NCBI GenBank assembly: GCA_050008655.1
Contig: JBEKMF010000003.1
Location: forward strand, 1 to 49,422
Length of the DNA: 49,422 nt
Reading direction: 5' to 3'
Source: Smithellaceae bacterium
GTDB taxonomy: Bacteria; Desulfobacterota; Syntrophia; Syntrophales; Smithellaceae
The stretch's first letter is position 1; the number at the start of each line of letters is the position of its first letter. Below the pieces are notes generated by a model. That model saw nothing but the letters and a program-made list of their open reading frames with translations. It was not told the DNA's origin and ran no database searches. This document shows, one piece after another, positions 26,851 to 48,014 of the stretch. A program made the translations under genes and the position numbers.

Positions 26851-26852
26851 AA

Positions 26853-26916
26853 CCGGAGGACGCGGGTTCGAATCCCGCACAGGAGAAATCTTGTAGGCGC
26901 AGCGGTCGCGCACCGG
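26853..26916 (+). ncRNA. Circularly permuted tRNA-like element (T-arm, GAAA-capped acceptor, D-arm), YrlA-like architecture
   Basis: ccgg-aggac-GCGGG TTCGAAT CCCGC-ACAGGA GAAA TCTTGT-ag-GCGC AGCGGTC GCGC-a-ccgg. Confidence 0.7.
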
Positions 26917-26919
26917 AAC

Positions 26920-26947
26920 CGGAGAGAGGGACTAAGTCCCTCCTCCG
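26920..26947. other. Strong GC-rich hairpin following the tRNA-like element
   Basis: cggag-a-gagggac taa gtccctc-ctccg; no U-tract. Confidence 0.6.
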
Positions 26948-26978
26948 TCTAAAAAGGAAAGTAAGGAAGGCCGAAATC

Positions 26979-27197
26979 ATGTCAGAAAAAATAAATTTTT
27001 GCACACTTGACGGTCAATGCGGCGCTCAAAACCTCGATGATCAAAGGGCATGTGCCTTCTATGCGGAGGCACAGACATTATATCCAGGTAATTGTGTGAC
27101 GCTCATTCACTCTAATTGTGTGCACCCAGAGGCGCTGACAGCTAAATTAAAGGAACTGAGAAATGAAAAAGAGCCAAAGCCAGATGAGAAAACATAG
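26979..27197 (+). CDS. Small Cys-rich hypothetical protein (72 aa)
   Basis: RBS aaggaagg before ATG 26979; five Cys; the longer ORF-track start runs through the ncRNA-like element. Confidence 0.6.
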   Translation: MSEKINFCTLDGQCGAQNLDDQRACAFYAEAQTLYPGNCVTLIHSNCVHPEALTAKLKELRNEKEPKPDEKT

Positions 27198-27486
27198 AGA
27201 GAAAAGGCAGGAGAGGCGAACCGTTTTGGAGCACGGGTCTTGTCTCACTATTACTATTCCTGACGTCCCGGTACCGGCAGGGCCGATATTGGAAAAAGAA
27301 GTGAAAGAAACCCGGCAGACAATGACCTTGAAAATGGGGGCTTGCCCCGTTAGAAATTGGATTTCTAACGGGGTGAATTGGCTCAGGGAATACAGCCTGG
27401 AATTGGCGATTGCAGTTGTAATTTTGTCACTGTTTGTATTAATCGGTAGCATCAATTATTTATATCTAACTGAAAGGACATTCTGA
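27163..27486 (+). CDS. Hypothetical protein with C-terminal TM, contains an in-frame palindrome
   Basis: Operonic overlap; LAIAVVILSLFVLIG. Confidence 0.55.
   Translation: MKKSQSQMRKHREKRQERRTVLEHGSCLTITIPDVPVPAGPILEKEVKETRQTMTLKMGACPVRNWISNGVNWLREYSLELAIAVVILSLFVLIGSINYLYLTERTF
27345..27373. repeat. REP-like palindrome copy 1 (CCCCGTTAGA family)
   Basis: CCCCGTTAGAAAT-TGG-ATTTCTAACGGGG, flanked by CTTG and TGAA. Confidence 0.85.
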
Positions 27487-27923
27487 TGAAAATATGCGAA
27501 CAAATCATGGTTATTGTTCTGGCCGTCATCCTTATTTTAGGTGGCATCTATTTCATTCCCAAATGGCTGACGCCGCAGGCCTCGCACGTATTTTACTGGT
27601 GCCAGGAGAGAAAAGAATTTACAAAAGAAGGGAAATTTAAAGGCAGCAACAATAAACTTGCCTATCCCCGGACCGCCCGCATTTATCCCGCGATCAAAGA
27701 CATGTCTTATATTAAGTATGTCGAATATGACCTTGAACAAAATACCGGATGTTCAATAGCATCTATTCAGAGTTGGCAGAATGTTGATTGCAGAGATTGT
27801 GGAAAAGAGGTCGAAATAAAAAAACTGGAAAATGAGTTAGATAAATCCCAAAAGGAAATCCAGCGGCTTGCCCCGTTAGAGGCGAAGACCTCTAAAGCGG
27901 GATTGGGGAGAGGTGGAAAATAA
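27486..27923 (+). CDS. Hypothetical N-terminally anchored protein
   Basis: TGATG overlap; N-terminal TM; CxxC and coiled coil. Confidence 0.6.
   Translation: MKICEQIMVIVLAVILILGGIYFIPKWLTPQASHVFYWCQERKEFTKEGKFKGSNNKLAYPRTARIYPAIKDMSYIKYVEYDLEQNTGCSIASIQSWQNVDCRDCGKEVEIKKLENELDKSQKEIQRLAPLEAKTSKAGLGRGGK
27871..27901. repeat. REP-like palindrome copy 2 (imperfect)
   Basis: CTTG-CCCCGTTAGAGG-CGAAGA-CCTCTAAAGCGGG. Confidence 0.7.
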
Positions 27924-28009
27924 TGCCGCAGATCGACCAACAAACTCTCAATATCATTTTGGTCGCGCTGTTTTTAATTGCTTTATATTTTTGGTGGAAA
28001 AATGAGTGA
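27923..28009 (+). CDS. Tiny single-TM peptide (28 aa)
   Basis: TAATG overlap, RBS gaggtgg; MPQIDQQTLNIILVALFLIALYFWWKNE. Confidence 0.5.
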   Translation: MPQIDQQTLNIILVALFLIALYFWWKNE

Positions 28010-28010
28010 T

Positions 28011-45536: not shown

Positions 45537-46003
45537 GCCAATTAACCGACATACGGGAACAAATAAAAGTCATCCTCTCCGGCGTCCCCGATATCGGCAT
45601 GGTGCATGATTACACCCGACTGGCGGTGGATTACACTACCGTATTGAATTTCTTCAAGACACCGGATGGCCAGTTTAAGGGCGTGATGTTTGCGCGGGAG
45701 AAAATGGCCAAAGAGCGCGGTAGTTCCTGGGCGCGGGCGCATGTATTTGTTTTTCGCGCCATCATGGCACTGAACGATGGAAAGCAAAGCGGCATCCAAT
45801 TCGATGGGATGCTCGATGCCATCGAACGGGAATTTGAAAAGTATGACGATCTTAACGGCACGTGTTCTACCTGTATGCCGGATTTCGGCCCGATGGCCGG
45901 GCATGCCGGAATGCAGATAACGATAATCGAAGAAAGAATGTTCGGAAACGTTCTGTGCCACTACGCGGAAATGCGTCTGTGTGCAGAGGAATATCAATCA
46001 TAA
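45533..46003 (+). CDS. Putative tail terminator/completion protein
   Basis: ATGA overlap; FGNVLCHYAE; located before the tail tube. Confidence 0.65.
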   Translation: MSQLTDIREQIKVILSGVPDIGMVHDYTRLAVDYTTVLNFFKTPDGQFKGVMFAREKMAKERGSSWARAHVFVFRAIMALNDGKQSGIQFDGMLDAIEREFEKYDDLNGTCSTCMPDFGPMAGHAGMQITIIEERMFGNVLCHYAEMRLCAEEYQS

Positions 46004-46018
46004 AACGAGAGGTGATTT

Positions 46019-46195
46019 ATGCCATTCAAATTAAAAGAAACAGCGGAGGCTTTTCAGGTTGTCGACGGTCCTTACGCCGGCAAGGATTTCAAACCGGGAA
46101 TAATTTACAACGATATCCCGCCGCAGGAAGCTAATAGATTTGAAAAAGCAAAAGATGAACCGGCGAGCAAAGGCGACAAAAAAGGAGGTAAATGA
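46019..46195 (+). CDS. Small hypothetical tail-region protein (58 aa, not in ORF track)
   Basis: RBS gaggtg; MPFKLKETAEAFQVVDGPYAGKDFKPG... Confidence 0.65.
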   Translation: MPFKLKETAEAFQVVDGPYAGKDFKPGIIYNDIPPQEANRFEKAKDEPASKGDKKGGK

Positions 46196-46197
46196 TT

Positions 46198-47487
46198 ATG
46201 CCCAGAAACTATCAAGCGACAAACAATTTAATTGCCGTTTCCGCCGCCGCGCGTGAGACGGCGATCAATACCGAGCAGACGCTGGATGTCACGATGCTCT
46301 GCGCCCTGGCCAATATTATCAATCTGGACTTCCGCCGGGAGAATAACGGCAATGAGGCCATCGGCAAAGAAGAGCCGGATGTAATTTATGATCGAGGCGC
46401 CCTGGCCAGTGCAGTTTTTGATTTCGAGAAAGCACAGCCGCAACATTTCGCCTTCTTACTGGCTTATGCTCTGGGAGTGGACACGCCCTCCGCATTGGGC
46501 GTCGGCGGTTATAAACATGTCATTACGCCGATTGCCGGAGACCTGGATGCCAGCCGCTCCATCCCCTCTTTTACGGCGGCACAGCGCTATGGCCTGACCG
46601 TCCTCAAACGGCGATTCGCCTCGATGTTTGTGGATCAAATTACAGCCACCTTCGCCCGGGATGCCTTTTGCAAAATATCCGGAACGATCAAGGGAACGGG
46701 CAAGAGAACGGATAACATCACTGAGGAAATTGTCTCCGCTTACATTGACGGGACATCTCTATCCCTGGCAGCCAATAGCGTGGAAGGAGCAGATGGTCCC
46801 ACCAGGTTAATGAATGTCCAGAGGATCAGGGTAGAATTGACGACCGGTGTCTGGACAGAAGTCGTTTATTCGGCGGTTACCGCCGGACCTCCGTCAGTGA
46901 TCACGATGGTCGCTCCGGGGGCTACTCACACGCTGAAAAACTTCAAGATTCTTTATATCCCGGCGGAATCCGGATCAGCCTGGATGACCTTTCCGGCCCG
47001 CATTACGGAAACACCGCTTATCGTCTCTCAGATGAATTTGAATGTGGGCGGAACATGGAGCGGATCGGCATTTGCCGGAGGCAGGATCCTGTCGGCGGAA
47101 ATGAAGCAGCTCGTGTGGACATTGCAGAATAATTTAAAGGTCGAATATGTCCCGGGAGCCGGCGGCGTCTATGCGGCGCGCGCTATCCGTGACGGCCGGG
47201 CGCAGATGATCAAACTCGACCGGGAATTCCGCGAATATATTATGCAGCAGCACATGGCCGACAATGACTCTATGGGCCTCTACATTCTGGCTGAAGGCGA
47301 GCTATATGATACCACCTACAAATATCAGGTGGAGATTATCTTCCCCAAAGTAGCAGTCCTGACTGCGCCGATTTCCGTGGACGGAAAGCGTTTGGCCGAA
47401 GCCGGAGATATCCAGGTGTTGGAAGACAGTACTTACGGCTCCGTGATCGTGAATGTTCAGAATAAACAAACCGCGTATGCGGGGTAG
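46198..47487 (+). CDS. Major tail (tube) protein, probably with an inserted domain
   Basis: RBS aaggagg; located before chaperones and tape measure; FLLAYALG, YKHVITP, IPSFT, VEIIFPKV; no sheath gene seen. Confidence 0.65.
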   Translation: MPRNYQATNNLIAVSAAARETAINTEQTLDVTMLCALANIINLDFRRENNGNEAIGKEEPDVIYDRGALASAVFDFEKAQPQHFAFLLAYALGVDTPSALGVGGYKHVITPIAGDLDASRSIPSFTAAQRYGLTVLKRRFASMFVDQITATFARDAFCKISGTIKGTGKRTDNITEEIVSAYIDGTSLSLAANSVEGADGPTRLMNVQRIRVELTTGVWTEVVYSAVTAGPPSVITMVAPGATHTLKNFKILYIPAESGSAWMTFPARITETPLIVSQMNLNVGGTWSGSAFAGGRILSAEMKQLVWTLQNNLKVEYVPGAGGVYAARAIRDGRAQMIKLDREFREYIMQQHMADNDSMGLYILAEGELYDTTYKYQVEIIFPKVAVLTAPISVDGKRLAEAGDIQVLEDSTYGSVIVNVQNKQTAYAG

Positions 47488-47505
47488 AAAAATTAAAGGA
47501 AGAAG

Positions 47506-47596
47506 TCCTATCCGCCAGGGAAGCGCTCCGGCGGATAGGATCAATTCAACTATCAAATTTCAGCGCGCTTAACTTCTGAAATTTGAGTTTTATTGA
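47506..47596 (+). ncRNA. Structured repeat motif, copy E
   Basis: TCCTATCCGCC..GGCGGATAGGA-TCAAT-TC-aac..tcaaatttcag/ctgaaatttga-gtt-TT-ATTGA-GAGG, ATG at 47610. Confidence 0.75.
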
Positions 47597-47609
47597 GAGG
47601 ATTTTTAAG

Positions 47610-48014
47610 ATGCCCAGACTATTATCAGACGAAATAAAATCAATTAAAGGCAAAGATACAGCAACTGAAAGCATGTTTACCTTGTTTTATCGTCCACCCA
47701 CGGTCGAAGAAAGAATCAGTTATGCCAATTCTTTTGTGACCCGGAAGGGAAATAAAATCGAAACCTCCCTGGGAGAGACCAGAATCAATAACGGCTTAAA
47801 AATAATGACTGGCTTTGACGATAATGCATTTCTCAAAAAAGATTCTCAAGGCAATAAGGTCCCTTTGTCTTCCGATCCTAAATCAAAGAATTATGATCCA
47901 AAGTGGAAAGAGATCGTACGACAATATGCCTCTGATGTCGCCGCATGGCTGGCCATGCAGGTATTCGAGGCGGGATTGCTGAAGGTCGAGGATACAAACG
48001 AGGACCCTACTTAG
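47610..48014 (+). CDS. Tail assembly chaperone (gpG-like)
   Basis: Between tail tube and tape measure; YRPPTVEER; ends EDPT*. Confidence 0.65.
   Translation: MPRLLSDEIKSIKGKDTATESMFTLFYRPPTVEERISYANSFVTRKGNKIETSLGETRINNGLKIMTGFDDNAFLKKDSQGNKVPLSSDPKSKNYDPKWKEIVRQYASDVAAWLAMQVFEAGLLKVEDTNEDPT

Follow-up and report, generated by a model that had tools for sequence, protein, structure and literature searches.

A conserved zinc-ribbon gene, structured leader and terminator that look like a late-gene control cassette in a Mu-like prophage of a Smithellaceae bacterium

We analysed a stretch of 49,422 nt from a Smithellaceae bacterium, called the window in the following (contig C131 of a metagenome-assembled genome of 2.36 Mb, 82% complete), of which the part from about 19.1 kb to the end is a Mu-like transposable prophage. 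Within it we found a gene for a small four-Cys zinc-ribbon protein, a structured leader and an intrinsic terminator, which by their anatomy, conservation, covariation and synteny in related phages look like a conserved late-control cassette. An earlier reading of the same DNA, here the original prediction, had combined these parts with a CspA-type gene, a TraR/DksA gene, a set of hairpins and a tRNA mimic into one RNA-centred system that stages late expression. What it had observed was largely real, but the proposed system is not one unit; it is mostly host repeats, an accessory gene and a TraR gene that is present throughout the phage group. It seems probable (roughly 0.6) that the region covers the middle and late portions of a Mu-like prophage and carries three unrelated layers, namely the late-control cassette, host repeats and accessory or group-wide genes.

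The understanding of late-gene control in transposable phages is based nearly solely on the Mor and C activators of Mu. If our reading is true, a cassette of small protein, RNA and terminator would be an alternative to Mor/C and would include a new small RNA-binding antiterminator, and the role of Com-type proteins would grow from translational control of a single gene to the transcriptional timing of a whole late programme.

Results and discussion

Anatomy and conservation of the leader

The leader ends in a strong intrinsic terminator, which only 22 nt separate from the start codon that follows (Table 1). In all nine leaders examined the plan is the same: a closing stem (P1), the box-1 hairpin, a small hairpin, an A-rich linker, and box 2 within the terminator arm. 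The box hairpins have stems of 4-5 bp and a hexaloop C[U/A]G[G/A]GA, usually with GAGA just before. Both boxes are present in 9/9 leaders, and their stems compensate, as in GCCC/GGGC, GCUC/GAGC and GGCC/GGCC. The 3' strand of box 2 also serves as the opening bases of the terminator's 5' arm, and because the strands are shared the box-2 hairpin and the terminator are mutually exclusive. A classic attenuator-type alternative pairing was looked for in the leader and none was found apart from the box-2 hairpin. For the leader attenuator of the original prediction, the strong terminator with a promoter-like site ahead of it was confirmed.

Table 1. Positions of features in the window
Feature	Position	Strand	Remarks
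HTH (helix-turn-helix) repressor	19482-20048	-	
Regulator	20634-21101		
MuA transposase	21258-23549		
MuB-like ATPase	23901-24596		
Orphan tRNA-like cloverleaf	26853-26916	+	directly past gam stop; minimum free energy -47.4 kcal/mol, z -3.3
tRNA-like module, T-arm	26862-78		
tRNA-like module, capped 6-bp stem	26879-94		GAAA loop
tRNA-like module, D-arm	26897-26911		module closed by stem CCGG/CCGG
Hairpin after tRNA-like module	26920-26947		
Family-2 inverted repeat CCCGTTAGAAAT/ATTTCTAACGGG, short form	27346-27372		
Other family-2 copies	27872-27900, 28012-28089, 32935-33015, 43725-43752, 43806-43814		
HI_1489_N-family protein	28869-29384	+	conserved Mu-like early/middle gene; phage-group marker; in both G095 relatives
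Four-Cys zinc-ribbon protein	29381-29578	+	65 aa; candidate trans-acting factor for the leader
Family-1 copy 1	29593-29650	+	R1 58.9 bits
Two genes between zinc-ribbon gene and leader	29722-30779	+	open reading frame (ORF) 29722-30300, signal-peptide-like start; orphan 30393-30779
Family-1 copy 2	30325-30381	+	R1 66.8 bits; ends 11 nt before ATG 30393
Promoter-like site TTGCAA-16-TAAAAT	30788-30815	+	9/12 matches; such sites overall not above chance
Conserved structured leader	30838-30943	+	fold prediction and model R2
Leader stem P1	30838-43/30880-85	+	
Box-1 hairpin	30847-62	+	loop CAGGGA
P1b hairpin	30865-79	+	
Box-2 hairpin	30892-30905	+	loop CAGGGA
Intrinsic terminator	30897-30932	+	16-bp stem, UUCG loop; U tract 30933-43, T6AT4
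First late genes past terminator	30955-31627	+	small hydrophobic ORF 30955-31092 (sequence reading only), then GH108 endolysin 31187-31627
Cold-shock domain (CSD) protein	31630-31827	+	host-like accessory gene; Pfam CSD (PF00313) E 1.7e-30
TraR/DksA-type C4 zinc-finger protein	33592-33834	+	Pfam PF01258 E 2.9e-10, 40.4 bits vs cut-off 24.9
Family-1 copy 3	36473-36529	+	R1 75.7 bits; between terminase and portal genes
Family-1 copy 4, short variant	43156-43200	+	R1 32.1 bits, E 6.2e-05
Family-1 copy 5	47540-47596	+	R1 69.9 bits; spacer after ORF 46192-47487 (tail-sheath-gene-like placement)

For comparison 80 related viral loci were fetched with the HI_1489_N-family gene as marker. Homologs of the zinc-ribbon gene were detected in nine of them by tblastn, always 196-1361 nt past the marker gene. 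In every zinc-ribbon-bearing sister locus (8 loci) the sequence straight after this gene is homologous to 30820-30945 of the window. A covariance model, R2, was built from six sister leaders with the window excluded; it scored the leader of the window at 49.5 bits (E 8.9e-11) and also detected four other loci on which it had not been trained. In the own genome the leader is a single R2 match, unlike the repeats described below. Two of the loci found in this way had been missed by tblastn; immediately upstream of the leader they have zinc-ribbon ORFs that are divergent in sequence (64 and 69 aa), and a scan of viral contigs for the box pattern added two more distinct loci where the zinc-ribbon ORF ends 26-32 nt before the leader. 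Altogether a zinc-ribbon ORF of 62-83 aa stands upstream of the leader in 14/14 distinct phage loci, a synteny that is partly common descent, as the loci form one clade and adjacent elements are inherited together. Lysis genes lie directly behind the leader in the window and in two sister loci (L283 and L286).

The pairing in the leader alignment (A7) is strongly covarying: 97.3% of the cells are paired and double changes occur in 19/27 pairs, counts that are somewhat inflated since A7 is a model-based alignment and is fitted to the model. None of 500 shuffles matched the observed pairing, and controls slid along the alignment paired at 28-48%. RNAalifold run on the raw MAFFT alignment was misled by 1-nt shifts.

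The zinc-ribbon protein

The original prediction had described this gene as Com-like, which holds for the four-Cys zinc ribbon and not for membership of the Com family proper. Neither the protein at E<=10 nor the window in six frames matched the Com model PF10122, while Mu Com as control scored 36.8 bits; sub-threshold matches were obtained for 4/8 homologs (E 0.063-0.64). In BLASTP against Mu Com 14 residues only were aligned (E 0.014). The four Cys residues do align with those of Mu Com and three PF10122 members in MAFFT, and the CxxC...CxnC pattern is present. In three sister loci this slot is taken by genes of the true Com family, and among the Com-type sister loci, these three and the near-threshold L265, a terminator lies within about 130 nt after com in 3/4.

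A possible late-gene switch

The cassette looks like an undescribed late-gene switch and a new variant of protein-dependent antitermination. We speculate that the zinc-ribbon protein, once made, would bind the hexaloop hairpins on the nascent leader; bound protein would keep box 2 folded, the terminator would then be blocked, and transcription would continue into the late operon. Here the antitermination step of the original prediction gains comparative support, with the Com-like protein as the likely agent of a putative binding. That the zinc ribbon acts on the leader in this manner is a real though tentative possibility, as binding, read-through and transcription of the leader are each inferred. 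With somewhat greater reserve, we suggest that the Com-like zinc-ribbon family as a whole may be RNA-binding antiterminators which switch on the lysis and late operon in the Mu-like group that mostly does without Mor/C.

Besides the inflated pair counts and the shared descent mentioned above, several points weigh against this reading. Because the zinc ribbon fails the Com hidden Markov model, its putative RNA binding is argued only from resemblance and position. The 4-bp box-2 hairpin is far weaker than the 16-bp terminator with which it would compete. Finally, a distance of 1.2 kb lies between gene and leader in the window. Their separation by two genes is seen only in the phage of the window, each of these genes is preceded by a host-type hairpin, and by tblastn ORF 29722-30300 and the orphan 30393-30779 were found in 1/80 and 0/80 related loci, respectively; a Protein Atlas search with the orphan gave no usable match.

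The zinc ribbon might instead act on DNA or on RNA polymerase, like lambda Q or P2 Ogr, at a late promoter embedded in the end of its own gene, with the leader hairpins serving another factor or the polymerase itself as a put-like element. A -35-like TTGCAA/TTGACA is indeed found upstream of 11/13 leaders, the order of gene, promoter, leader, terminator and lysis genes is that of lambda Q-PR'-tR', and weak Ogr_Delta matches were detected in 2/8 homologs (E 0.07-0.24). On the other hand, the -10 hexamers are poor, and the overlap of the -35 motif with conserved ILAK codons may reflect mere coding conservation. The protein has no similarity to Q families, and recognition of RNA is suggested by the two hairpins, which are conserved and sequence-specific and whose stems covary. 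We therefore find action at DNA or polymerase quite unlikely.

In the sister phages the -35-like motif TTGCAA/TTGACA falls within the final ILAK codons of the gene for the zinc ribbon, and in the window a similar CTTGCAA is found past the stop of the orphan gene (region 30780-30837), possibly as a relic of the ancestral junction.

A simpler explanation would be that the leader and terminator merely close an early or middle operon or encode a small RNA, with the late genes using another promoter and the zinc ribbon regulating translation of a neighbouring gene in the manner of Com. Mu Com activates translation (PMC6483171), terminators are common at operon ends, and the Com-type sister loci have their own terminator shortly after com, as noted above. 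Such an arrangement is unlikely in our view: the short gap between the terminator and the next start codon leaves no room for a promoter, and a duplicated box that overlaps the terminator arm, kept in all leaders examined, would be superfluous for a plain terminator.

Comparison with known antitermination and RNA-binding systems

Among antiterminators that stabilise a hairpin, the proposed antitermination by the zinc ribbon would most closely match the ANTAR dual-hexaloop motif. In the ANTAR system (EutV; PMC8934654) two hexaloop hairpins occur and the second is embedded in the terminator stem. The leader likewise has dual hexaloops, with box 2 overlapping the terminator and mutually exclusive folds, in 9/9 cases. 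It differs in its loops C[U/A]G[G/A]GA, where position 1 is C in all leaders as opposed to A1 and G4 of ANTAR, in the distance of about 30 nt between the hairpins with an extra stem in between, and in the candidate factor, which is a 65-aa zinc ribbon and not an ANTAR domain. An ANTAR Pfam search of the genome gave no match, the positive control being likewise silent.

Late control in lambda consists of the Q gene, the terminated leader PR'-tR', and then the lysis and structural genes. The prophage shows a like succession of regulator gene, short terminated leader, lysis genes and structural genes, and the leader hairpins with their GC stems and purine-rich loops resemble boxB of the N/nut system. 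In contrast to lambda, the zinc ribbon has no similarity to Q or N, and the overlap of its terminator with the recognition hairpin speaks for local attenuation, as opposed to a processive modification of the polymerase.

Mu Com, a zinc-finger protein of small size, acts on an RNA hairpin (PMC6483171). The zinc ribbon has a similar size and four-Cys spacing; the RNA element, however, is a leader with a terminator ahead of the late operon, where Com has the translation start of mom.

Distribution of the parts among related phages

The original prediction would have the Com-like protein, CspA, TraR/DksA, the attenuator, the hairpins and the tRNA mimic jointly stage late expression. The parts all share the same strand of a single prophage, the hairpins are all in sense orientation with four of them adjoining start regions, and Mor/C is missing. 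Across the related phages, however, the parts did not keep company. TraR was detected by tblastn in 61/80 loci regardless of the other parts, CSD by tblastn in none, the tRNA-like module and the family-2 repeat in 0/80 each, and the hairpins in 6/80 (11 R1 matches, both strands). Among the 65 loci in which the marker gene is followed by 8 kb or more, 36 have TraR alone, 14 no part, eight TraR and the zinc ribbon, five TraR and Mor/C, and two TraR and true Com, with CSD again at zero. The parts are therefore independently distributed among related phages, an outcome that the prediction had itself listed as counting against it, and the co-occurrence that the prediction proposed to look for was not borne out. 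As the hairpins further belong to a repeat of the host family, which is present in over 120 copies in the genome and shows no bias in strand, and as the csp gene is host-like, a joint system of all parts is highly improbable.

In the host family, two related prophages were found among 100 other genomes, both in one genome (G095). The zinc-ribbon and radical-SAM genes are missing from both by tblastn, R2 gave no match on their contigs, and by tblastn CSD was not found save for one weak match of 35 residues. TraR is present in one of the two. R1 hairpins occur at other sites in these prophages, except for a like element after the sheath-like gene of one of them (C268).

The absence of a recognisable Mor/C, as originally predicted, was confirmed: PF08765 matched none of the 49 ORFs at E<=0.01, and a six-frame search of the window gave no match at E<=1 either; the controls, Mu Mor and C, scored about 1e-33. 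The HI_1489_N protein and the orphan gave hhalign probabilities of 0.2% and 0.1% against Mor/C; no fold search was made. In the HI_1489_N-bearing Mu-like group the Mor family was found in 4/34 long records and is missing from the other 30.

The family-1 hairpins are a host repeat

Five structured motifs linked to ribosome-binding sites had been predicted in the prophage. Five copies are indeed present in the window, all on the plus strand and all in the prophage (covariance model R1, E 2.9e-15 to 6.2e-05), and four of them stop 9-13 nt short of a start codon region, but they belong to a host repeat and are not specific to the phage. Each is 57 nt in its full form, with ATYAATTC, a variable stem-loop and TCATTRA, and a GC-rich hairpin precedes each copy. 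The first had been placed over the com stop codon; the 57-nt hairpin in fact begins 15 nt past the stop of the zinc-ribbon gene, and what overlaps the stop is a short GC hairpin at 29563-29578.

In the own genome at least 133 R1 matches were found, 150 of 991 candidates having been scored. With nhmmer we detected 123 family-1 matches on 57 contigs, 117 of them outside ORFs of at least 90 aa. Relative to the flanking genes 44 are antisense, 32 sense, 19 divergent and 8 convergent, and because the orientations are mixed there is no genome-wide strand rule. Host copies form arrays, both tandem and nested, next to ordinary genes (sodA- and truA-like ORFs, for example), and in a handful about 12 nt or less separate the end of the copy from a plausible ATG start. 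In an alignment of the five phage and 20 host copies, 13 of 18 pairs show compensatory changes, and G-U pairs occur strand-specifically (eight at one pair). R1 matches were present in 21/24 genomes of the host family compared with 1/16 from other families of the order.

Family 1 is a REP/MITE-like host repeat. As in REP, BIME, REPIN and MITE elements, it is an intergenic, high-copy, imperfect hairpin with a conserved base and a variable, covarying top; unlike REP and REPIN, its genome is without a RAYT (Y1) transposase. No Y1/RAYT transposase (PF01797) was found in the own genome nor in the same-genus genomes G010, G011 and G003; two of these three carry more than 120 family-1 copies, and Y1 is present in G020 and G021. 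The repeat matches no named family, and Rfam gave no match.

Most likely the family-1 and CCCGTTAGAAAT repeats in the phage spacers are passengers. Against this stands the fact that all five phage family-1 copies are sense and that four abut a ribosome-binding site, and a secondary mRNA role of these copies may exist. The phage could for instance have co-opted the host hairpins as mRNA punctuation, that is as stabilisers, processing sites or translation modulators. In favour of this is the 5/5 sense orientation in the phage as compared with 32 sense and 44 antisense copies in co-directional host contexts, together with the strand-specific G-U pairs, the like element after the sheath-like gene of C268, and the different repeat (GTTCAAN heptads) that the G095 prophages carry in the same spacers. 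The positions of the hairpins vary among the relatives, however, and the dense phage spacers would place any insert beside a following start, which makes such co-option improbable. Further, the idea that opening or cleaving of these intercistronic elements is part of the phage programme is not supported, as the hairpins are of the host lineage and occur in few related loci, in both orientations. In practical terms, high-copy host hairpins beside ribosome-binding sites in prophages can mimic phage regulatory code.

A lone reverse-strand copy of the left end of family 1 (GGATCAATTCAGCTATC) lies at 38088-38109 (-), just past the portal stop. It was not scored by R1 and may be a fragment. In both G095 prophages (C28 and C268) tandem GTTCAAN heptads in phage-sense orientation occur in many spacers, and 17/24 heptad matches in that genome are on its two prophage contigs.

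The family-2 inverted repeat

Family 2 consists of the inverted 12-mers CCCGTTAGAAAT and ATTTCTAACGGG, which enclose 3-75 nt of varying interior. Its 9-mer has 10 matches in the window, with 0.18 expected, and 4/9 paired loci in the genome fall inside the prophage, an enrichment. The repeat is also found between host housekeeping genes, namely between carB and guaA, between genes for glutamate synthase, past dnaX and ahead of radC, and orthologous copies are present in relatives. Its right arm supplies the ISNG codons at the start of both the radical-SAM-like gene and a host radC (C160).

The tRNA-like module and the accessory genes

By its predicted fold the stretch after gam is an orphan mimic of the tRNA elbow. 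The tRNA mimic of the original prediction thereby stands as a tRNA-like cloverleaf that folds, with a textbook T-arm, and falls as a member of any tRNA or YrlA class: ARAGORN reported 0 genes, the order of the arms is permuted (T-arm, capped stem, D-arm), and Rfam gave no match at gathering scores. For YrlA (RF02553), in a search of 4.6 kb, 27.8 bits were obtained (E 0.0058), far below the gathering score of 69, and membership was rejected. The order of T-arm, loop-capped stem and D-arm is the same in YrlA (PMC4201824); the module matches model positions 23-87 only partly, and differs in having no visible terminal Ro-binding helix. No TROVE/Ro60 gene (PF05731) was matched in the own 82% complete genome. 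Out of 301 genomes of the order the tRNA-like pattern occurred in this one only, and the exact pattern was not found in viral contigs. A looser T-arm/D-arm pattern occurred in at least 120 stretches of viral contigs; among the 120 matches listed, 88 have both arms in adjacent tRNA genes, 27 have neither and five are mixed. None of 14 loci with the loose pattern that were rescanned with Rfam reached the YrlA threshold. The 27 modules outside tRNA genes among the matches listed have a loop-capped acceptor-like stem and lie in tRNA-rich regions of large phages.

The csp gene, TraR/DksA, the radical-SAM-like gene and the tRNA-like RNA module appear, from sequence comparison, to be accessory or group-wide and to stand outside the late cassette. 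The CspA-type and TraR/DksA genes had been called correctly, both by clear Pfam matches (Table 1). The cold-shock protein has the RNP1/RNP2 motifs KGFGFI and VFVHY, and with three host paralogs its gene shares 72-75% identity. The TraR/DksA-type gene usually sits 1.6-3.5 kb past the marker gene in the related loci, and TraR could itself be a regulator shared by the group.

The prophage and its surroundings

The Mu-like character of the prophage, also part of the original prediction, was verified by the detection of MuA, MuB, GemA, Gam, terminase, portal and MuF. Lysis and tail genes are present as well, and an 888-aa protease-capsid fusion is encoded. The endolysin matches Pfam Glyco_hydro_108 (E 1e-11) and the PHROG endolysins. 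Known phages are distant, with a transposase identity of about 31% or less and 22-24% over longer matches (9 records). The phage proteins have no second copy elsewhere in the assembly, no relative was found with the portal as query against the viral and genome collections, and a PDB profile search with the HI_1489_N protein gave nothing meaningful (best E 0.94).

The large terminase (34824-36458) is replaced in both G095 relatives (C28 and C268), where the portal, MuF and capsid are still 56-66% identical; the comparison points to a putative mosaic junction at the packaging genes. In the host part of the window, at 3522-10706, three ice-binding-like (PF11999) genes alternate with BON-domain genes and are followed by OmpA-family genes.

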